Shown one piece after another: positions 8,765 to 31,200 of a stretch of DNA of 64,000 bases; within the stretch, counting starts at the first letter, position 1, and each line of letters opens with the position of its first letter. The stretch is from Sulfuricurvum sp. (GTDB lineage Bacteria > Campylobacterota > Campylobacteria > Campylobacterales > Sulfurimonadaceae): the NCBI GenBank assembly GCA_030693335.1, contig JAUYAU010000001.1:13796-77795 (forward strand). Reading direction: 5' to 3'. Both the position numbers and the translations under genes were made by a program. The notes under the pieces were generated by a model, which had not been told where the DNA came from, searched no databases, and was given only the letters and a program-made list of their open reading frames with translations.

Positions 8765-11700
8765 TTATTGGATTAGATAATCTTGCAATGCTTGGGGTTT
8801 CATCCACGTATCGTCGTGCATTTGTGCCATAGCTTCAATTGCAGCACGTGCAGCGCTCAAGGTTGTGAAATAAGGGATTCCCATGCGCAATACAATTTGG
8901 CGTATTTGTTCTGCATCTTTTTTAGCCGTTTGGTTATCTGACGTATTGATGGCCAAAGAAATATCACTGTTTTTCATGATATCTTCGATGTTTGGGCGAC
9001 CTTCAGAAATTTTGAGAACTTTTTCGCATGCAATACCGGCTTCAGCAATAATTTTTTGCGTACCGCCTGTCGCAACAAGGGTAAATCCTTGATTTGTCAA
9101 CCCGCGTGCAATTTCAACCGCATGTTTTTTATCGGCATCAATAAAAGAAAGAAAACACGTACCTGAAGTCGGTATTTTATTTCCTGCAGCCAATTGGCTT
9201 TTTGCGAAACTTACACCAAAATTTTGGCTGATACCCATGACTTCACCTGTCGATTTCATCTCAGGTGAGAGGACCAAATCGGCACCGTAAAGTTTGTTAA
9301 ACGGAAATACCGCTTCTTTGATGGCTACGTGCCCTTTTAGACGAGGCTTGAGCAAATCGTCCTCTTCCATCACAACATCGTAGTTATCATAGTATTTAAG
9401 GGCATTGCGTAAGGTGTCACCCAGCATGACACGGGTCGCAATTTTAGCCAATGGCATACCCGTAGCCTTGGAGACAAACGGCACGGTACGTGAGGCTCTT
9501 GGGTTGACTTCGATGATGTAAATTTCATTTTTGTAAATTGCATATTGAATGTTCAGCAATCCGATGACACCCAGTCCCAATGCAATAACTTTTGTTTGCT
9601 GTTCTACTTGGTATTTGAGTTCATCGCTTAGTCCTACAGGAGGGAGTGAACAGGCACTGTCGCCCGAATGAATCCCAGCTTCTTCGATGTGCTGCATAAC
9701 AGAACCGATATAAACTTCGCTGCCGTCACTGATGGCATCGACATCGAGTTCTACTGCTTGATCGAGAAATTTATCAACAAGGACAGGTGAATCGTTGCTC
9801 ACCGATACGGCTACATCCATGTAGGTACGCAGATCATCTTCATTGTAAACGATACGCATAGCGCGCCCGCCCAAAACATAGGATGGACGTACCAGTACGG
9901 GATAGCCCAATTCTTCAGCAACAATAAATGCCTGTTCTTTAGTCATCGCAATACCGTTTTCTGGTTGCTTAAGACCTTGTTCAACGACAAATGCAGAGAA
10001 TTTTTCACGATTTTCCGCCAAGTCAATAACCGCAGCAGACGTTCCGGCAATAATAGCCCCCATTTCTTCCAAAGCATTGGCCAATTTCAACGGTGTTTGA
10101 CCTCCGAAATGGACAATTATGCCATTTGGCTGTTCCGATTCGACTACTGCACGGACGTGCTCAAAATCAATCGGTTCAAAATAGAGTACATCAGAAGTAT
10201 CATAGTCGGTAGAAACGGTTTCAGGATTACAGTTGTACATGATCGTTTCAATACCCATCTCTTTTAGAGCAAAGGCGGCATGGACACAGCAATAGTCAAA
10301 TTCAATCCCCTGACCGATACGGTTTGGTCCGCCACCTAGTATAAGAACTTTTTTCTTATCGCTTTTGCGCGGGGCTTGAAGACCAAGAGCAGAGATATTG
10401 GTCGTTGAATACAAATACGGGGTAAGTGCTCCAAACTCTGCAGCACAAGTGTCTACTTCATTGTATTCAAAAGCTATTTTGAGTGATTTTCTAGCATTGT
10501 ATACGTCATTTTCTTTTGCACTTCCGCCATTTTGAGTGATAAGGCGTGCAATGTTTTTATCTGAGAATCCTTCGGTTTTAAGACGTCGCAGTTGGACTTC
10601 ATCTTTGAGTGTTGCAGCGGTAATATGGGATTCTTGAGCTACCAATTCTTCCAATTGGGTCAGGAACCACGGATCAATTTTGGAAAGTTCAAAAATTTCG
10701 CCAAGACTTAGACCCATGCGGAACCCTTGGGCAACGTAGAGAATGCGCTCCGCATTGGGACGGCGGATTTCATGTTTGACAAACTCTAAATCACCTGCAA
10801 TCGGATCAAATCCGCTAAGACCTGTTTCGAGAGAGCAGAGTGCTTTTTGGACTGATTCTTTGAAAGTACGGCCAATCGCCATGACTTCTCCAACCGATTT
10901 CATGCTCGTAGTGAGGGTTGATTCGGCTTCCGGAAATTTTTCAAAGGTAAAGCGAGGAATTTTGGTGACGATATAGTCAATGACCGGTTCAAAGCTCGCC
11001 GGTGTTCCGGTAATGTCATTGGTCAGTTCATCAAGGGTAAATCCAACTGCAAGCAAGGTGGCAATTTTTGCAATAGGATAACCCGTTGCTTTTGAAGCCA
11101 ATGCAGATGAACGTGAAACACGAGGATTCATTTCGATAACAATCATACGTCCTGTTTTCGGGTCAACTGAAAATTGAACGTTTGATCCTCCTGTATCAAC
11201 GCCAACTTCACGTAAAATAGCAAAAGAAGCATCACGCATACGCTGATATTCTTTGTCTGTAAGTGTTAGTGCAGGAGCTACGGTGATAGAATCACCTGTG
11301 TGAACACCCATCGGGTCAAAGTTTTCAATGGAACAAATAATGATACAGTTATCGTTACGGTCACGTATGACTTCCATCTCATATTCTTTCCATCCAAGGA
11401 GTGATTCCTCAATCAAAATCTCAGTAACCGGGCTTTCGTCCAAGCCCCTTTGCGCCAAGAGTTTGAACTCATCGATGTTGTAAGCAACGCCGCTTCCACC
11501 ACCTGCAAGAGTGTAAGAGGCTCGAATAATGAGAGGGAACCCTATGTTATTAGCGGCATTAAGTGCTTCGTCCATATTGTAAGCATATTGAGAGATTGGA
11601 AGGTCCATGCCGATTTTGATCATGCACTCTTTAAAGGCTTGGCGGTCTTCCCCTTTTTTAATGGCGGCAGGACTGGCGCCCAAAAATTCAACACCCTCCA

Positions 11701-21344: not shown

Positions 21345-22553
21345 TTGGATTACGATGTGGAAAACTGGTTACAGCTTCGTTTGTCTCGACTCTCTTTACG
21401 GGAACTTCATTTCTACACAATTTTTCTTATTTTGATTCTTTTTGTCATTTTTTCATCTTTGCTTATCTATGATGAATATCATAACTTTTTAACAGCAGCG
21501 AGTCATACCATGACTAACACACAGGGGAATCCGATCGCCTTGAAAGGGGGTATGATAAAAATCATTTTGAATATTTCTACTTTGGCACTGATTTTATTTG
21601 GCTTGATTATTGGGATTTCAAAAATTGTCAACAGCATGATTGCCAGAGATATCAAACGGTTTTTAGACTTTTTCGAATCGATTCATGAAAAAGAGATATC
21701 CATTTATCCAGCCGATCTTTATTTTGACGAATTTAAAAAGATGGCCGGATATGCTAATGGCATGGCTATGATGATTTATGAGCAAAAAGAGTCACTGCAA
21801 TCTCTCAACGCCAGTTTGGAAGAACGGGTTAAACAAAAAACCGAGGCGTTGCAACTCAAAAATGAAGCACTTGAAGAGGAGCAAAAATTTTCACAAGGGC
21901 TGCTTGAATCGCATAAACAGTTTATCCGCTATGCGATTCATGAGACCCATACGCCACTGTCGGTGATTATGGCGAATATCGAGTTGTTTAGCATGAATGA
22001 GGGGCGTAATCGTTATTTGGCTAAAATCGAAGCGGCGGTTAAAAATATCTTTAGTATTTACGATGATTTAAGCTATTTGGTCAAAAAAGATCAAATAGAA
22101 TATCCTAAAAAAGCGATGGATTTGCGCGAATACGTTGAAAAAAGGCTTGAATTTTTTGATGAGGTTGCCCATTTTTCAAATCTCTCTTTTGAGTATGAGA
22201 CATCAGAATTTCCGGCATGGATACAGTTTAATGAGACGAAACTTCAGCGGGTTATCGATAATAATCTAACGAATGCGATCAAATATACCAAAAATGGAGA
22301 AAGCATACGAGTAGGGGTCGGTTCGAATCTCGATGAATGTACTTTTTGGGTTGAAAGTCATTCGCAAAAAATTGAAGATGTCAATAAAATTTTTGAAGCG
22401 TACTACCGTGAGCGTAAAAAAACAGATGGGTTTGGATTGGGGCTTAGTTTGGTCAAATCAATTTGTGATGAAGAAGGGGTGAGCATTCGTATTGATTCAA
22501 CGGTTGAATACACCCGTTTTGAGTATCAGTTTCCTAAAAAGGGGCATATTTGA
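21345..22553 (+). CDS. Membrane sensor histidine kinase with only a short periplasmic loop
   Basis: Two TM helices, coiled coil, H-box HETHTPL, N-box NAIKYT, G-box GFGLGLS; start codon uncertain (TTG 21345 or GTG 21357). Confidence 0.9.
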   Translation: MDYDVENWLQLRLSRLSLRELHFYTIFLILILFVIFSSLLIYDEYHNFLTAASHTMTNTQGNPIALKGGMIKIILNISTLALILFGLIIGISKIVNSMIARDIKRFLDFFESIHEKEISIYPADLYFDEFKKMAGYANGMAMMIYEQKESLQSLNASLEERVKQKTEALQLKNEALEEEQKFSQGLLESHKQFIRYAIHETHTPLSVIMANIELFSMNEGRNRYLAKIEAAVKNIFSIYDDLSYLVKKDQIEYPKKAMDLREYVEKRLEFFDEVAHFSNLSFEYETSEFPAWIQFNETKLQRVIDNNLTNAIKYTKNGESIRVGVGSNLDECTFWVESHSQKIEDVNKIFEAYYRERKKTDGFGLGLSLVKSICDEEGVSIRIDSTVEYTRFEYQFPKKGHI

Positions 22554-23212
22554 AAATCTTTCTACTTGAAGATGAACAGATGCTCAGTGATGCTATCAAT
22601 GAGTATTTGCTAGCTTTAGGGCATCGTGTTGTTGTCTGCTACGATGGAAGCGAAGCGCTGGTGTCTATACAAGCAGAGAATTTTGATTTGCTCATATTGG
22701 ATATCAATGTTCCGGGAATCGACGGATTGGATTTGCTCGAACAGCTCCATATTCTTAAAATTCGCCCTCCTGCTATCTATATCAGCGCATTGGCAGATAT
22801 TGAGGGAATCAGTCGGGCGTATGATCTTGGGTGTTATGATTATCTCAAAAAGCCGTTTCACCTTAAAGAACTCTCTTTGCGCATTGATAAAGTAATGCAG
22901 GTATGTGCAGTGCCGCAAAATCATCTTTGCCTCTCAAAAAGTTACAGTTACGATGCCTCCACTTCTACCTTACAGTGTGAAAATACGATACAGCCACTTT
23001 CAAGACGGCAATTGCAGATTATTGACTTATTGGCACGCAATAGGGGAAGGGTAGTCGATTTTGACCAATTTCGCATCTATATATGGGATGATGAATACGT
23101 CGATAATGCTACGATTAGAGCGGAGGTAAGCCGTCTGAAAAAAAGTCTCAAAGAAGATTTCATCCAAAACATTCGGGCATTAGGTTATATGATCGATATT
23201 CCTAAAAGCTAA
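22550..23212 (+). CDS. OmpR-family DNA-binding response regulator
   Basis: LLEDE, LLILD, KKPF receiver motifs; winged helix ending IQNIRALGY; overlaps the kinase stop. Confidence 0.93.
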   Translation: MKIFLLEDEQMLSDAINEYLLALGHRVVVCYDGSEALVSIQAENFDLLILDINVPGIDGLDLLEQLHILKIRPPAIYISALADIEGISRAYDLGCYDYLKKPFHLKELSLRIDKVMQVCAVPQNHLCLSKSYSYDASTSTLQCENTIQPLSRRQLQIIDLLARNRGRVVDFDQFRIYIWDDEYVDNATIRAEVSRLKKSLKEDFIQNIRALGYMIDIPKS

Positions 23213-23284
23213 TCGTGCTACTTTTTTACACACACGTCTCCTAATATTAAAATTTCTGACGATAAATTTTTCTAATTTTACCTT

Positions 23285-23317
23285 TGCTACGTTCATGCTA
23301 CGTTTTGTTTTCATAAT
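23285..23317 (+). promoter_or_regulatory. Tandem direct repeat (OmpR/PhoB-type box) over the -35 region of the porin-actP promoter
   Basis: TGCTACGTT at 23285 and 23296 (11-bp period), then a CATAAT -10 at 23312-17. Confidence 0.65.
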
Positions 23318-23352
23318 GGCACTGTTAAAAACTTTTGGTTTGAGGAGTGTAT

Positions 23353-24708
23353 ATGAGAGGTACAGTATCTCTGTCGCTTTTGGCATCGGCTTTGGTTGTC
23401 AATGCTTTTGGTGCAGACGATTTGGCAGGAATGTTCAAAGAGGGGAAAGCAAGCGGTCAAATCCGGATGTTTTGGGTTGATCGTGAATACCAAGGGACAG
23501 CTGGAAACAAGACGCATAGAGATGCGACAGCCATCGGCGGTTATTTGAAATATGAAACAGGAGATTTCAAAGGACTTACTCTAGGGACTGCATTTTATAC
23601 GACAAATGGTCTTTTTATAGAGTTACCAAGAGAGGATTACTCCCAAAATGATATGACACTGCTGGGACCCAATAATGATAACTACTCAATGGTAGGTGAG
23701 CTTTATGCTCAATATAAAAGAGGAAATACTACATTCAAAGGTGGTCGTCAGAAACTGGATATTCATATGGCAGGAAGCGATGATGTTCGTATGACTCCTA
23801 ACTTGTTTGAAGCCTATTTATTGACAAATAAAGATGTTCCCAATACAACACTTGTAGCAGGACATATCACCAAATTCGCCCAAGGTAGTTTTGGGCGAGT
23901 TTATAATCACACAGAAGCAAGTTCAGAAGCTTCCAAATTACTTTCCGTTACCTCGGGTTATTCTTACGTTAATAGCCTCGATCAAGTAGGTGAATTTGTC
24001 AATATGGGAACGTATACTCTTGGTCAATCAACAAACGGGGTATCGGTTCTCTCAGCAACGTATACGGGAATAGAAAATCTAAAATTACAGTTGTGGGACT
24101 ATTACGCCCACGACATCGCGAATATCATTTACGGTGAAGCAAATCTCAATTGGAAAAGTTTTATCAGTGATAACATAAAACCAAGTGCGGGGCTTCAGAT
24201 CATCAAACAAAATGATGTCGGGGATGCATATGCAGGAGAGCTTGAAGGGTTATATGCCGCTGGAAAAGTTGGATTCCAAATCAATAACTTTGATATAGGA
24301 TTTTCATACTCACAAACAGCAAAAAACAATGCTACAGATTCGAAATTGAAAAATGCCATCATCACGCCATGGGGTGGAATACCGGCATACACGCAGGGGA
24401 TGGTAACACGTCATATGTTTTTGGCTGGAACTAAAGCGTGTAAAGTAAATGGTGGCTACAATTTTAAAGATCTTGGCGCTAGTTTAACAACTTCTGCCTA
24501 TTATACAGCGTTTGATATGGATAAAAACAGTGGATATGGGTTGGAAAGAACTGCAAGTGAGGCTGGATTCGAAGCAATCTATTACCCGGAATATGTCAAA
24601 AACTTACAGCTTCGCTTTCGTGGAAATTTTCCAAGAAATTTTGCAGAAGGTTCTAGCGGAACAACGGGCTGGAGTGAGTATCGCTTCATTGCAAACTATA
24701 ACTTTTAA
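23353..24708 (+). CDS. OprD-family outer-membrane porin
   Basis: GAGGAG RBS; signal peptide; FKGGRQKLD motif; amphipathic beta strands; C-terminal YNF. Confidence 0.85.
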   Translation: MRGTVSLSLLASALVVNAFGADDLAGMFKEGKASGQIRMFWVDREYQGTAGNKTHRDATAIGGYLKYETGDFKGLTLGTAFYTTNGLFIELPREDYSQNDMTLLGPNNDNYSMVGELYAQYKRGNTTFKGGRQKLDIHMAGSDDVRMTPNLFEAYLLTNKDVPNTTLVAGHITKFAQGSFGRVYNHTEASSEASKLLSVTSGYSYVNSLDQVGEFVNMGTYTLGQSTNGVSVLSATYTGIENLKLQLWDYYAHDIANIIYGEANLNWKSFISDNIKPSAGLQIIKQNDVGDAYAGELEGLYAAGKVGFQINNFDIGFSYSQTAKNNATDSKLKNAIITPWGGIPAYTQGMVTRHMFLAGTKACKVNGGYNFKDLGASLTTSAYYTAFDMDKNSGYGLERTASEAGFEAIYYPEYVKNLQLRFRGNFPRNFAEGSSGTTGWSEYRFIANYNF

Positions 24709-24720
24709 GGAGATGCAATT

Positions 24721-25035
24721 ATGAAACAAGAAATGGTTGATCGTATTAAAAACGATCCTGATTTTACACAGCTTGTCCGCGTACGAAGCAAGTTTGCATG
24801 GACATTGACGATTGTAATGCTGGTGATTTATTTTGGATTTGTGCTGACGATCGCATTTGATCCGTCGATTTTGGGTACTCCGCTCTCAAGCGGTTCGGTA
24901 ACAACAGTTGGTATTCCAGTGGGGATAGGTGTTATATTGAGTGCCTTTATTTTAACAGGGATTTATGTTCGACGTGCAAACGGTGAATTTGATGAGCTTA
25001 CTCGTCGTATTAAAGACAAAGCGAAGGGGGAATAA
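24721..25035 (+). CDS. DUF485 (YjcH-like) inner-membrane protein
   Basis: Two TMs, [12 protein letters not shown] motif; directly upstream of actP. Confidence 0.88.
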
Positions 25036-26696
25036 TGAAACCGATAATCTTTTTACTCTTAGGCTCAGCCGGAATATTTGCCGGTGAAGCCATTAGCGGT
25101 GCGGTAGAAAAGCAACCGTTAAATATGTCGGCGATTATCATGTTCTTGATTTTCGTTGGAGCAACACTTGCTATCACCTATTGGGCAGCAAAACGTACCA
25201 AAACAGCAAAAGATTTTTATACCGCAGGCGGTGGAATTACCGGTTTTCAAAACGGTATGGCGATTGCAGGAGACTATATGTCTGCGGCATCGTTTTTAGG
25301 TATTTCAGCGCTTGTTTACGGACAAGGGTATGATGGACTCATCTACTCTATCGGTTTTTTAGTGGGATGGCCGATTATTTTGTTCATGGTAGCAGAGCAG
25401 CTTCGTAACTTGGGTAAATATACATTTGCGGACGTTGCATCGTACCGTTTGCGTCAAATGCCTATTCGTACATTGGCGGCGTTTGGATCAATTTTGACAG
25501 TTGTTTTGTATCTTATCGCTCAAATGGTAGGTGCAGGTAAACTTATCCAGCTTCTTTTTGGATTGGATTATGAAATTGCCGTTATTTTGGTTGGGGTATT
25601 GATGATTCTTTACGTCACTTTTGGCGGAATGCTGGCAACAACATGGGTTCAAATCATCAAAGCCTTCCTGCTCCTCTCAGGTGCGACCTTTATGGCGATT
25701 GCGGTTATGGCACATTATAACTTTAACTTCGAATCGTTGTTTGCAACGGCTGTGCAGATGAAAGACGTTTCTATTATGTCTCCAGGGAAACTTGTCAGTG
25801 ATCCTATCTCGGCTATTTCACTGGGTATTGCTTTGATGTTTGGTACGGCGGGTCTTCCACATATTTTGATGCGTTTTTTCACGGTCAGTGATGCAAAAGA
25901 GGCTCGTAAATCAGTTTTTTATGCGACAGGATTTATCGGATATTTTTACATTCTGACATTCATCATCGGTTTTGGTGCGATTGTTTTGGTTTTCCAAAAC
26001 CCGCAATATCTTGATCTTGCAAAACAAGCTGTTGACGGTGGTTATCCAATCCTTGGGGGTGACAATATGGCGGCAATCCACCTTTCCCATGCAGTAGGGG
26101 GCGATTTCTTCCTCGGATTTATTTCCGCGGTAGCGTTTGCAACAATTCTTGCGGTTGTTTCCGGGTTGACACTCGCTGGTGCTTCGGCAATATCTCATGA
26201 TCTGTACGCCAGTGTTATAAAAAAAGGTAAAACTGATGGATTGATGGAGATGAAAGTTTCAAAAATTGCAACGATTGTTCTGGGTATCGTAGCGATTTTC
26301 CTTGGAATTATTTTCGAAGATCAAAATATTGCGTTTATGGTCGGATTGGCATTCGCTATCGCTGCAAGTGCCAACTTCCCAATTTTGTTTCTTTCTATGT
26401 ATTGGTCAAAACTTACTACAAGAGGAGCGTTGCTTGGTGGTTCATTAGGTCTTCTTACAGCAGCGGTATTGGTTATTCTAGGGCCTACGGTATGGGTTGA
26501 TGTATTGGGCAATGCTCAAGCAATTTTTCCATATAAATATCCGGCACTTTTTTCTGTGAGTGCAGCGTTTATCGGTATTTGGTTCTTCTCTATTACTGAC
26601 AGCAGTGATGAGGCTGCCAAAGAGCGTGAAGCATTTGAAGCACAATATGTCCGGGCTCAAACGGGTATCGGTGCTGAGGGTGCCTTGGAGCATTAA
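25035..26696 (+). CDS. actP: Cation/acetate symporter (SSS/SLC5 family)
   Basis: [32 protein letters not shown] motifs. Confidence 0.93.
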
Positions 26697-26699
26697 CTT

Positions 26700-28523
26700 A
26701 TGAGCCTTTTTGATCAAAAAGCATTATTAATGTCGATTCATCCTTTCGATCTTTTGAGCGAGAGGATGATTGAAAAACTGATGACTCAGATGGATATTGC
26801 TTATTATCCCAAGGAGACAGTTTTAATTGCTCCTAGGGTACGTGCACAGTCTCTCACGATTATCATCAAAGGGGTAGTCAACGAGACCATTGAGGAGGAA
26901 CTTCAAAACGTTTACTCTGAATGTGACAGTTTTGATGCTAACTCCCTTATTTATGGAAATACTGAAAGTACTTTTAGTGTAGCAGAGGATCTTATCTGCT
27001 ACGAACTTCCCAAAGAGTCTTTCCTGAATCTTCTTCAAGACGTTGAACCGTTTCAAAACTATTTTATGCAGGATTTTATTACTAAACATCAAAACTTGAA
27101 AGAGCGTCAGTATCAAAATGAATTGACCCCGTTTATGCTTTCCCGTGTGGATGAAATTTATTTGCATAGACCCTGTTTTGTGGATGCTCACAGATCGATC
27201 AAAGAAGCATTACAAACTATGTCAGATGAAAATGCAAATGTTATTTTGGTTCGTGATGAGCAAAAAACAGGTATCGTGACAGATACCAATTTACGCGAAA
27301 AAGTGTTGTTATCCGAGAAAAGTATTCAAGACTCAATTGGTGAGATTGCAACTTTCGGACTCATTACGATTGAACAAAGTGATTTTCTTTTTAATGCATT
27401 GCTTTTATTTACCAAACACGGTGTTAAACGGTTGGTAGTTATGCATGAGGATAACGTTGTCGGGATCTTAGAACAGCTTGATCTTCTTAGCCATTTTGCA
27501 AACCATACCCACCTAATCGCCGCATCGATCGATCGGGCTCACAGTATTGATGAGCTTCAACATACGCAGCGTTCCCTGACCCATCTTGTCAGTTCGCTAA
27601 CCTCAAAAGGGGTGAAAGTACGGTATATCTCGAAGTTGGTGAGTGAGCTTAATAGCAAAATGTACGTAAAAGTCTTCGAGATGGCTGTTCCCAAAGATCT
27701 TCAAGGCAAGTGTGCTTTGATTGTAATGGGAAGCGAGGGGAGAGGTGAGCAGATATTGCGTACCGATCAAGACAATGCCCTGATTATTCGTGACGGTGAA
27801 AATGAAACACAATTTGAGCCTTACATGATGAGGTTCAATGAGTATTTACTTCAATTGGGTTTTCCCCTATGCAGCGGTAATGTCATGGTGAGCAATCCGT
27901 ATTGGCGACGAAGTGTTTTGGGATACAAAAGCATGATTTCCCAGTGGATTGAGTCTCTCAATGAAGAAGCACTTCTTTCTCTCTCGATCTTTTTGGACGC
28001 TTCATGCGTGGCAGGGGATGAAAATTTGTTGGGTGAGTGCAAAGATTATCTGTCTGAGCATTTTAAGGGGCGCAGCGACGTATTGGCCCATTTGGCAAAA
28101 TCGGCACTGGCTTTTGAGACTCCCTTGAGTCTTTTTTCAGGGTTTGTTTTGGGAACAGCCTTGCATGAAAATGAACTGGACATCAAAAAAGGGGGGATTT
28201 TTGCGATTGTACACGGAGTGCGTGTTTTGGCACTGGAGCATAAAATTGCGTGTACCAATACAACACAGAGAATTAAAGAACTCAATAACATCGGATTGTT
28301 TGACAAACAGTTCGCAAATGAGTTAATCGAGGCGTATGATACCTTGCTGGAGATACGTTTGCGCTCGATGCTTTTACAAAAGAAAATGGATGAAGAACAA
28401 AATTACGTTAATCCAAAACTTTTCAGTAAAACGGATCGCGATTTGCTCAAAGATGCTTTTAGAATTGTGAATATGTTTAAAAAGTTTTTGACCTATCATT
28501 TTCATTTGGGGATGGTAGTCTAA
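26700..28523 (+). CDS. cNMP-binding/CBS/DUF294 putative nucleotidyltransferase
   Basis: N-terminal cNMP-like domain, CBS pair (TGIVTDTNLR, GILEQLDLL), GSEGRGEQ...TDQDN NTase motif, LDIKKGG helical domain. Confidence 0.88.
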   Translation: MSLFDQKALLMSIHPFDLLSERMIEKLMTQMDIAYYPKETVLIAPRVRAQSLTIIIKGVVNETIEEELQNVYSECDSFDANSLIYGNTESTFSVAEDLICYELPKESFLNLLQDVEPFQNYFMQDFITKHQNLKERQYQNELTPFMLSRVDEIYLHRPCFVDAHRSIKEALQTMSDENANVILVRDEQKTGIVTDTNLREKVLLSEKSIQDSIGEIATFGLITIEQSDFLFNALLLFTKHGVKRLVVMHEDNVVGILEQLDLLSHFANHTHLIAASIDRAHSIDELQHTQRSLTHLVSSLTSKGVKVRYISKLVSELNSKMYVKVFEMAVPKDLQGKCALIVMGSEGRGEQILRTDQDNALIIRDGENETQFEPYMMRFNEYLLQLGFPLCSGNVMVSNPYWRRSVLGYKSMISQWIESLNEEALLSLSIFLDASCVAGDENLLGECKDYLSEHFKGRSDVLAHLAKSALAFETPLSLFSGFVLGTALHENELDIKKGGIFAIVHGVRVLALEHKIACTNTTQRIKELNNIGLFDKQFANELIEAYDTLLEIRLRSMLLQKKMDEEQNYVNPKLFSKTDRDLLKDAFRIVNMFKKFLTYHFHLGMVV

Positions 28524-29134
28524 TGTTTGAATCTCTCCTTCTTGGATGGAATCGCAGGAAGTTAAAGGATGAGAATTATGGATGGCTGTTTAATCCTTAT
28601 CAGGGAGATGAAGTCGTCATATTTGATACCGAAACAACGGGACTAAATACAAAAACCGATGTCGTTTTGAGCATCGGAGCGGTAAAAGTTAGAGGGGATA
28701 AAATTCTTACTTCCCAAAGTTTTGAGGTTTTCTTAAAACCTTCAAAAGAGATCAGTGCCCAAAGCATCAAAATTCACCATATTCGGCCATGCGATTTAGA
28801 ACAGGCTTTGGAGCCATTAGAGGGGGTACGAAAATTTTTAGAATTTATTGGAAATCGCCCATTGGTTGGGTATTATCTAGAGTTTGATATGGCAATGATA
28901 AATCGTTTGATTAAACCGTGGCTTGGGATAACGTTGCCCAATAAACAGATTGAAATTTCCGGGATATATTTTGATAAAAAAATTGCGTTGATTCCCCAAG
29001 GAAATATTGATTTACGCTTTGATACTATCCTTCGTGAATTGAATATTCCCAGAATGGGTCAGCACAATGCACTCAATGACGCAATTATGAGCGCAATGAT
29101 CTATATAAAATTACAACATGTACACAGGATTTAG
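28523..29134 (+). CDS. DEDDh 3'-5' exonuclease (DnaQ-like)
   Basis: FDTETTGL, LEFD and HNALND motifs. Confidence 0.9.
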   Translation: MFESLLLGWNRRKLKDENYGWLFNPYQGDEVVIFDTETTGLNTKTDVVLSIGAVKVRGDKILTSQSFEVFLKPSKEISAQSIKIHHIRPCDLEQALEPLEGVRKFLEFIGNRPLVGYYLEFDMAMINRLIKPWLGITLPNKQIEISGIYFDKKIALIPQGNIDLRFDTILRELNIPRMGQHNALNDAIMSAMIYIKLQHVHRI

Positions 29135-29238: not shown

Positions 29239-31200
29239 ATGAGCGATACTGTAAAACCTATTTTTCAACCAAACCCTGAGTTCGCGGCTGCCGCACGCAT
29301 TAAAAATATGAACGAGTACCTTGAGCTGCAAAAAATGGCTCAGGAAGACTACGAAGGATTTTGGGGTAAATTTGCCAACGAAAAGATTGATTGGTTCAAA
29401 CCCTATACGCAAGTGCTTGATGAGAGCAATGCCCCTTTTTACAAATGGTTTACAGGCGGTAAGCTCAACATTGCACACCAATGCATCGATCGTCATCTCA
29501 ACACCCGTAAAAACAAAGCGGCAATCATTTTTGAAGGGGATCGCGGAGATAAACAAATCGTCACGTATCTTGAACTTTATTACAACGTTAACCGTTTTGC
29601 CAATTTACTCAAAAATGAGTTTGGGGTTAAAAAAGGAGATCGTGTCGTCATTTACATGCCGATGATTCTCGAAGCGGCGTACGCAATGCTCGCCTGTACC
29701 CGTATCGGAGCGATCCACTCAATCGTATTTGGGGGATTTTCCTCCGAAGCGCTTCGCGATCGTATCATTGATGCAGAAGCAAAAGTCGTGATTACCGCCG
29801 ATGGAGCGTTTCGTAAAGACAAACCGTACATGCTTAAGCCTGTCGTCGATGAGGCGTTGAGCCATGGATGTGAATGCGTTGAAAAAGTACTGGTTGTAGA
29901 GCGTAACGGTGAAGACATTACCTGGGTCTCAGGGCGTGATTACTCCTACAATGAACTCATCCAAAACCAATCGCAAGTGTGTGCTTCTGAACCGATGGAT
30001 GCAGAAGATCCGATGTTCCTCCTCTATACTTCAGGCTCAACAGGAAAGCCAAAAGGGGTTCAGCACAATACCGGAGGATACATCCTCTGGGCGCAAATGA
30101 CGATGGAATGGGTTTTTGATGTCAAAGAAAACGATACCTACTGGTGTACGGCGGATATCGGATGGATTACGGGGCATACATATATCGTTTACGGACCTCT
30201 AGCCATGGGTGCTACAACCATAATGTTTGAGGGGGTTCCGACGTATCCCGATGCCGGACGACCGTGGAAAATGGTGGAAGAGTACAAAGTAAACCAGTTT
30301 TATACTGCACCAACCGCGATTCGTGTGTTGCATAAAATGGGGGAAGACGAACCCGCTAAATATGATTTGTCGTCTCTTAAAGTTTTGGGTACGGTAGGCG
30401 AGCCAATTGACCCTCCGGCATGGAAATGGTACTATGAGGCAGTAGGAGGAAGCAAGTGCGCTATTGTGGACACGTATTGGCAAACAGAGACAGGCGGGCA
30501 TATTATCTCTCCTCTTCCAGGGGCAACGCCAATCAAACCAGGCTGTGCTACGTTTCCGCTGCCTGGAATCATGGCAGAGGTTTTAGATCCTCAAACGGGT
30601 GAAAAAGTGGGAGCAGGGGAGAGCGGATACATGTGTATTACCCGTCCTTGGCCATCAATGATTCGCGGTATTTGGGGAGATCCTGAGCGTTTTGTAAAAT
30701 CGTATTTTGGTGATGTGAAAAAAGAGGGACAACCGGTCTACTTCACAGGTGATGGTGCGAACTACGACAACGACGGGTACATTACGATTACCGGACGTAC
30801 CGATGATGTTATCAATGTTTCGGGTCACCGTATGGGTACGGCTGAAGTAGAAGCGGCGTGTAAAAAACACCCCAACGTAGCAGAAGTAGCAGTTGTCGGA
30901 AAACCCCATGAGATCAAAGGGGAAGGGATTTTTGCTTACATCGTTCTCAAAAGCGACGATACCGTGGGTGAAGAGATGGAAATGGTAAAAGAGATCAATA
31001 AAGTGATCATGAAAGAGATTGGCAACATCGCCATCTGTGATGACATCGTGTTTGTCCCAGGCTTACCAAAAACCCGTTCGGGTAAAATCATGCGCCGTAT
31101 TTTGCGTTCGATTGCCAAGGGTGAAGCGATTACCCAAGATATCTCGACACTGGAAGATCCAAGTATTGTTGCGACTATTGAATCGAAGGTTAAGGGGTAA
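29239..31200 (+). CDS. acs: Acetate--CoA ligase (AMP-forming)
   Basis: [32 protein letters not shown]. Confidence 0.98.

Follow-up and report, generated by a model that had tools for sequence, protein, structure and literature searches.

We analyzed a 64,000-nt stretch of a Sulfuricurvum sp. genome (GenBank assembly GCA_030693335.1, contig JAUYAU010000001.1, positions 13,796 to 77,795; the whole stretch is hereafter called the window) and, within it, a two-component system composed of a sensor histidine kinase and an OmpR/PhoB-type response regulator. The system is a Cache-less variant of an ordinary, though undescribed, acetate-uptake two-component regulon in the Campylobacterota. As judged from alignments and gene order, its kinase is orthologous and syntenic to kinases that carry a periplasmic Cache domain, and conservation among the loci compared extends to the kinase, its regulator and a tandem repeat preceding the adjacent porin gene. 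Kinases lacking the domain, such as that of the window, are referred to below as short forms.

Architecture of the kinase and its Cache-bearing orthologues

The start of the kinase gene was taken at TTG 21345, the longest possible (402 aa); database records use GTG 21357 (398 aa). The gene and the regions of its product are as follows.

21345..22553 (+): sensor histidine kinase, Cache-less form; Pfam matches only to HisKA (residues 191–250) and HATPase_c (residues 296–398)
21411..21467 (+): first transmembrane helix (TM1), residues 23–41; Kyte–Doolittle score 2.81, mean column conservation 0.93 (117 Sulfuricurvum sequences)
21468..21560 (+): short extracytoplasmic connector, residues 42–72, the remnant of the deleted Cache domain; flanking Cache residues kept, conservation 0.59
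21561..21617 (+): second transmembrane helix (TM2), residues 73–91; Kyte–Doolittle score 2.59, conservation 0.89
21630..21914 (+): HAMP-like helix-connector-helix followed by a coiled coil, residues 96–190; from AlphaFold2 (AF2) secondary structure
21915..22538 (+): DHp (HisKA) and catalytic ATPase (CA) domain; phospho-acceptor His199 at 21939–21941

A preliminary description of this DNA had noted that only about 30 residues separate TM1 and TM2 and that the kinase has no cytoplasmic PAS or GAF domain. Both statements held: hydropathy gave a distance of about 31 residues, with no Pfam match in the loop, and a PAS or GAF fold was found neither by the Pfam scan, which returned HisKA and HATPase_c only, nor in the AF2 model. 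That model, built with 25 short-form orthologues (mean predicted local distance difference test score, pLDDT, 79.6), consisted of a single helical hairpin (helix 18–57, turn 58–62, helix 63–112), a 15-residue connector, a long helix (128–201) reaching His199, and a normal DHp/CA core. Pfam detected no HAMP domain in the kinase; the model has the succession of helix, 15-residue connector and helix, and source records label relatives "HAMP domain-containing". Residues T79, L80, I83 and F85 of TM2 were invariant among the short forms. His199, the N box and the G2 box were invariant among the 25 short-form orthologues, and the kinase therefore looks functional. The position of the G1 box (DxGxG; residues 336–345, 22350–22380) reads ESHSQKI, aligned to ASPGTKI of HprS: the G1 glycines are absent, the G2 box is intact, and the same degenerate G1 box occurs throughout the kinase orthogroup.

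A search of related genomes returned matches over the full length, about 400 aa, in nearly all genomes of the genus; the kinases of all Sulfuricurvum searched lacked the Cache domain. Matches in other families of the order started only at query residue 63–77 and lay in open reading frames (ORFs) of 520–550 aa. The 20-kb stretches around these out-of-family matches were fetched for gene order, and the longer kinases were found to precede the same genes: response regulator, porin, DUF485, actP, DUF294, exonuclease and acs. Pfam places an sCache_2 domain (PF17200, E = 1e-28 to 1e-33) in the periplasmic part of these orthologues, precisely in the interval from TM1 to TM2. The window kinase shares 36–60% identity with the kinases of these loci over residues 63–400, has the same gene order, and groups with them on a careful maximum-likelihood tree. 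The complete order, from kinase and regulator through to acs, was found at about 40 loci of the family Sulfurimonadaceae and in six other Campylobacterales families, and it was seen again in named genomes of Arcobacteraceae, Sulfurovum, Nitratiruptor and Nitratifractor.

A profile of the canonical, sCache_2-bearing forms scanned against 185,579 species genomes yielded 439 relatives. The best 80 of the 439 were all Campylobacterota (Arcobacter, Halarcobacter, Malaciobacter, Poseidonibacter, Aliarcobacter, Sulfurovum, Nitratiruptor, Nitratifractor and Sulfurospirillum), and where enough flanking DNA was available for these, the genes that followed were mostly an SSF transporter, the DUF294–exonuclease pair and DUF485–ActP. 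In the window genome (2.17 Mb, 99.99% complete), the sole sCache_2 match lies elsewhere (G000:C14:146308-146574), within a 559-aa ORF.

Among solved sCache_2 structures, the canonical periplasmic domain was nearest to 2QHK/4EXO, 4K08 and 5G4Y (E = 4e-21 to 2e-13), whose ligands are pyruvate, acetate and propionate/acetate (PMC5062169). Because of this proximity to pyruvate-, acetate- and propionate-binding domains, we infer that the ancestral system very probably sensed a small periplasmic carboxylate, the actual ligand being assigned by analogy.

Kinase forms in the family and the distribution of constraint

The family was sampled with 150 genomes, from which 36 loci were fetched. Gene order was almost always kept, and the kinase occurred in three forms. 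The canonical sCache_2 form was present in one genus of the family (L069, L075). Many genera keep a long form with a periplasmic stretch of about 150 residues, for which no Pfam match was obtained even at E = 1; profile comparison with the canonical sCache_2 sequence gave similarity only in the C-terminal G.GxY stretch. An AF2 model of this stretch (pLDDT 82, predicted template modeling score, pTM, 0.71) combines a five-stranded sheet with a long helix at the N-terminus, and its best PDB matches were single-Cache domains: TlpB (3UB7), WalK (4YWZ), 2QHK and 5G4Y. By position and predicted fold, the long-form domain is a homologous Cache fold that has drifted past sequence recognition.

The third, short form has a loop of 25–45 residues and includes the window kinase. 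Short forms retain the DEY..F motif with which the N-terminal helix of the Cache domain begins, and LK..IK just ahead of TM2; between these ends the alignment has a gap, the edges of which vary by lineage. Deletion of the sensor domain had been mentioned in the preliminary description as an alternative, with an alignment of orthologous kinases as the way to check it, and this alternative is borne out: syntenic orthologues carry sCache_2 between TM1 and TM2, the window protein keeps only its flanks, and the alignment places the gap between the retained domain ends. A direction of loss rather than gain is indicated because the short forms keep these ends and because the Cache domain is homologous to old chemoreceptor domains. 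At one out-of-family locus (L038, G037:C1), the orthologue (9207-10568(-)) has a periplasmic stretch of intermediate length, about 115 residues, without a Pfam match, which may be a partly deleted Cache domain; here a porin gene is missing, and acs is found on the upstream side of the kinase gene.

The maximum-likelihood tree was computed from the shared C-terminal 340 residues. On this tree, the short form requires four changes; a single origin was recovered in 0 of 200 bootstrap trees, and a single clade holding all short forms together was rejected by the approximately unbiased test (delta lnL 70, p = 9.7e-5). The window kinase is paired with one other short form (support 100/98) within a group of long forms, one large short-form clade covers several genera, and the short form of genome G095 stands among long forms of its own genus, g23 (G149 and G069). 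Another short form, that of the out-of-family locus L037, was excluded from the tree for its long branch. Read from this tree, the Cache domain has been lost at least four times independently in the family. Soluble kinases of 623–634 aa with an N-terminal FIST_N/FIST_C domain share 44–52% identity with the DHp/CA core of the window kinase (L039:8544-10430, L040:8191-10095 and L034:5721-7592); they have their own OmpR-type regulator and do not stand beside actP. These kinases are nested in the tree of acetate-locus kinases, so the core has exchanged its input domain on more than one occasion.

We compared mean pairwise identity across the parts of the kinase within the two groups of Cache-bearing forms, where the values are comparable only as within-group ratios, as the canonical group covers several families.

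Canonical forms: periplasmic domain 0.46, TM2 0.26, linker (HAMP) 0.23, catalytic domain 0.43
In-family long forms: periplasmic domain 0.23, TM2 0.63, linker (HAMP) 0.50, catalytic domain 0.54

Among canonical forms, conservation of the periplasmic domain matches that of the catalytic domain, and TM2 and the linker are variable; in the in-family long forms this is reversed. The short forms resemble the in-family long forms in this pattern: among the 117 Sulfuricurvum sequences, conservation was 0.93 for TM1, 0.89 for TM2, 0.82 for the catalytic domain and lowest, 0.59, for the loop. As the reversal is already present in the in-family long forms, selection had shifted towards the TM helices and the linker ahead of the deletion. 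Such a shift of constraint fits an input that enters at the membrane level.

The operon and its putative operator

The order of ORFs and their Pfam domains confirmed that the two-component genes lie directly upstream of porin, DUF485 and actP, as had been described. The features that follow the kinase gene are listed below.

22550..23212 (+): OmpR/PhoB-type response regulator; Response_reg and Trans_reg_C, its gene overlapping that of the kinase by 4 nt
23285..23304 (+): tandem direct repeat TGCTACGTT-ca-TGCTACGTT, 11-bp period; a CATAAT -10 box (23312–23317) follows after 7 nt
23347..24708 (+): OprD-family outer-membrane porin, first gene of the operon; Pfam and synteny
24721..25035 (+): DUF485 (YjcH-like) small membrane protein; Pfam
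25035..26696 (+): ActP-type solute:sodium symporter; Pfam SSF, E = 1.9e-117
26700..28523 (+): DUF294 protein (cNMP/CBS nucleotidyltransferase); Pfam, co-operonic, kept behind actP
28523..29134 (+): RNase_T-type exonuclease; Pfam, co-operonic, kept behind actP
29239..31200 (+): acetyl-CoA synthetase (Acs); Pfam, 104 bp after the exonuclease

The regulator possesses the acidic pocket and the Asp of LILD and shares 45–74% identity with syntenic regulators. A spacer of 134 bp separates its gene from the porin gene. Since the genes from porin through exonuclease overlap or are separated by gaps of 12 bp or less, they probably form one transcript. The repeat upstream of the porin has a third near-copy of TGCTACGTT at 23216–23224. 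In relaxed form, GCTAY-N6-GCTAY, the pattern was present within 200 nt upstream of the porin in all 35 porin-bearing loci (18 with a long and 17 with a short kinase) and in 0.04% of shuffled sequences, and the tandem repeat is the only intergenic copy in the window genome. In two genomes in which kinase and regulator are unlinked from the operon, the repeat is still found about 1.7 kb upstream of actP, at the expected start of the porin.

The geometry of the repeat is classic for OmpR/PhoB-type activators. The regulator combines a receiver with a winged-helix Trans_reg_C domain, as do members of that family, and the period of about 11 bp recurs in 35 of 35 loci, with binding predicted; the adjacent OmpR-type regulator would be the obvious binder. 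A wider regulon was considered and rejected, as the one other genomic copy of the strict tandem pattern (G000:C8:313658-313674, corresponding to L077:1501-1517) is inside a 650-aa ORF and is probably there by chance. Single exact copies of TGCTACGTT within acs (30546 and 30874) were likewise taken as chance occurrences, with 17 copies observed in the window and 11 expected.

The actP gene is the sole SSF gene of the window genome. Mutants in DUF485 are reported to show co-fitness with ActP-like permeases (bioRxiv 10.1101/072470), and the DUF485 protein is a probable subunit of ActP. No acetate kinase was found in the 99.99%-complete window genome, so acetyl phosphate from AckA would be unavailable as a substitute phosphodonor or input; a bypass by acetyl phosphate was rejected for this reason.

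The pair of DUF294 and RNase_T exonuclease stands behind an SSF transporter in nearly all loci across the Campylobacterota (window 26700–29134; loci L079-L158). In Arcobacteraceae the pair is often duplicated, together with two DUF485–ActP pairs and a distant SSF protein (30% identity) right behind the regulator. Some Sulfurimonas-type loci have, between regulator and porin, a gene for a 706–707-aa membrane protein resembling Cache chemoreceptors (L047:7083-9206(-), L057:11948-14068(+)), which could be an acetate chemoreceptor. A conserved co-sensor gene inserted at this position was rejected, the inserts of short-form loci being heterogeneous (efflux pump, TRAP transporter, chemoreceptor and ATPase).

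Possible routes of signal input and comparison with known systems

Taken as a whole, we consider it likely that the window encodes a two-component system of the Campylobacterota that turns on the uptake and activation of acetate (C2/C3 carboxylates) and whose Sulfuricurvum kinase has had its sCache_2 domain cut out, keeps an intact core, acts through the regulator and the repeat, and receives its input at the membrane level. The ancestral kinase would have read the periplasm through an sCache_2 domain of the type that binds C2/C3 carboxylates. What its excision left in the window lineage is a hairpin of TM helices, then a HAMP-like linker and coiled coil, with an intact catalytic core. The kinase would phosphorylate the OmpR-type regulator encoded by the overlapping gene; the regulator would bind the TGCTACGTT repeats, spaced at 11 bp, over the -35 region and activate the genes from porin and DUF485–actP through DUF294 and exonuclease. 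As no periplasmic or cytoplasmic ligand domain remains, the signal would have to enter via the TM hairpin and linker. Our leading, still tentative, guess for its source is a membrane partner, most plausibly the DUF485/ActP of the operon.

Several points weigh against this model. A change in ActP or DUF485 accompanying the loss of the Cache domain was absent from the window lineage, in what was a test of low power. The high conservation of the TM helices could reflect packing in the four-helix bundle of the dimer, and the breadth of the canonical group, noted above, restricts the comparison of identities to ratios. The tree has no safe root, with FIST-domain paralogues nesting inside it. The protein that binds the repeat is assigned only from repeat geometry and adjacency. 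Finally, we found no experiment linking kinase, regulator, repeat and acetate, and no Campylobacterota literature on this or any other characterized acetate-locus system of the phylum.

With regard to the route of input, co-sensing with the transporter is possible, and we favor it tentatively. The system would be a two-piece analogue of CrbS, in which TM–TM or linker contacts would inform the Cache-less kinase of the transport state of DUF485/ActP, and uptake flux, not periplasmic acetate, sets expression. The kinase has an architecture of the intramembrane type, its TM helices and linker are the best-conserved non-catalytic parts, at least four lineages dispensed with the periplasmic domain and retained the regulon, and DUF485 is likely an ActP subunit. 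Transporters are established co-sensors for BceS, DcuS and UhpB. In CrbS, the SLC5 domain is fused to the kinase (PMC5715377). Against co-sensing, Cache-bearing orthologues share the neighborhood, which makes linkage a feature of both forms and adjacency uninformative; ActP and DUF485 are unchanged in length and domains whichever form the kinase takes; and two short-form genomes have their two-component genes unlinked from the operon. The only convergent position is column 82 of the DUF485 alignment (loci L042-L058, L049 and L037), where Val is invariant in 18 long-kinase loci and Thr occurs in three of five short lineages, the window lineage not among them. The substitution may be due to chance or shared ancestry. 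Somewhat more doubtful is direct sensing without a partner, whereby the hairpin, linker or core would respond to permeant acetic acid, cytoplasmic pH, membrane energization or a cytoplasmic metabolite. The shift of conservation to TM helices and linker would suit it, as would the lack of a conserved extra neighbor gene at short-form loci, but the cytoplasmic part has no ligand-binding fold recognizable by Pfam or AF2, and precedent for such input was not found for this kinase family. What these readings and the next leave falls to other partners.

A kinase blind to signal, constitutively on or off, with control having passed to some other element such as the acs leader or the DUF294/exonuclease pair, appears unlikely. 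The periplasmic domain was evolving fast in the family before its loss, which is compatible with relaxed sensing, and the loop is poorly conserved; yet kinase, regulator and repeat are strongly conserved in every short-form lineage, whereas a system carrying no information would be expected to decay, and acetyl phosphate is no substitute phosphodonor where acetate kinase was not found in a 99.99%-complete genome. By far the least probable account, to the point of being nearly discounted, is fission of an SLC5–STAC kinase of the CrbS/CbrA type into separate ActP and kinase. The resemblance is thematic only, in that an SLC5-family protein and a kinase are both tied to acetate use. Phylogeny and domain remnants already contradict fission: the kinase has sCache_2 kinases as its orthologues and still shows both ends of their periplasmic domain, a receiver domain is missing and its partner is an OmpR-type regulator, and ActP is 70–88% identical to the ordinary ActP beside Cache-bearing forms. 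An SLC5 domain is absent from the kinase, in which Pfam found only HisKA and HATPase_c and which has two TM helices versus 13. For STAC, no extra Pfam domain was detected in the kinase or the ActP C-terminus at E <= 0.001, the presence of a STAC model in the library being unconfirmed. The notion of a split CrbS-like transporter in the preliminary description fails, then, as an account of origin: tree and synteny place the kinase among sCache_2 kinases, it lacks both SLC5 and receiver domains, and the genome has no SSF gene besides actP.

Returning to co-sensing, we would venture, at low confidence, that in the Sulfurimonadaceae input had already moved to a membrane read-out of DUF485/ActP, that is, to flux sensing, which made the Cache domain dispensable and led to its repeated deletion. 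In that case, the window kinase would represent a naturally unfused equivalent of CrbS, with DUF485 as a possible adaptor.

To our knowledge, perception by kinases without a sensor domain is known for few systems, mostly cell-envelope stress modules of Firmicutes. Here, one regulon offers a natural series from a canonical carboxylate-type Cache domain, through a fast-diverging Cache fold, to deletions that arose independently at least four times. One genus contains Cache-less as well as Cache-bearing orthologues, with putative operator and operon unchanged, so that swap and deletion experiments would be easily interpreted. The analysis also defines an acetate-uptake regulon, not described before, across the Campylobacterota, made up of the kinase and its OmpR-type regulator, the GCTAY tandem repeat, a dedicated OprD-type porin and DUF485–ActP, which bears on mixotrophy of sulfur-oxidizing chemolithoautotrophs. 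The value of the system is mainly that of a natural experiment in kinase signaling without a sensor domain; should the kinase be signal-blind or a direct sensor, it would be an ordinary case of domain loss.

The system can be compared with several known ones. In CrbS, an SLC5 domain is fused to the kinase through a STAC domain, and the protein controls acs (PMC5715377); the statement in the preliminary description that the acs regulator CrbS has an SLC5-like domain fused to its kinase agrees with this. Like CrbS/CrbR (MxtR/ErdR) of Vibrio and Pseudomonas, the window system is a two-component system for acetate assimilation genes (acs, actP) that involves an SLC5-family module (PMC5715377, PMC8402216). 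In CrbS, SLC5 and STAC domains are fused to a hybrid kinase, whereas the window system is unfused and has no receiver domain, a different input ancestry and a different putative operator.

The sCache_2 domains that bind C2/C3 carboxylates (PscD-SD, 5G4Y; Adeh_3718, 4K08; the Vibrio parahaemolyticus protein, 2QHK/4EXO; and McpP) are homologous to the periplasmic domain of the window kinase's orthologues, which are predicted to control acetate-uptake genes in Campylobacterales. The solved examples are chemoreceptors, not kinases, and the window kinase has lost the whole domain. By eye, His103 of PscD, one of four hydrogen-bonding residues, is apparently Asp in the alignment of Campylobacterota domains.

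DcuS with DctA or DcuB, and UhpB with UhpC, illustrate that a transporter of carboxylates or sugar phosphates can gate a membrane kinase. DcuS retains a periplasmic PAS/Cache domain and meets DctA via a cytoplasmic PAS domain, unlike the window kinase, which is without a cytoplasmic PAS.

Intramembrane-sensing histidine kinases, Mascher's class, comprise BceS-like and LiaS-like proteins. Like them, the window kinase has two TM helices, and the extracytoplasmic stretch that joins these is too short to form a folded domain. It further resembles BceS-like and LiaS-like kinases in its lack of another ligand domain, its length of about 400 aa and its linkage to a transporter; LiaS-like members also have a HAMP linker, to which the HAMP-like segment of the window kinase may correspond. 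It differs in being of proteobacterial type (Campylobacterota) rather than from Firmicutes, in having HisKA rather than HisKA_3 and an OmpR-type partner, and in being demonstrably and recently derived from a Cache kinase.

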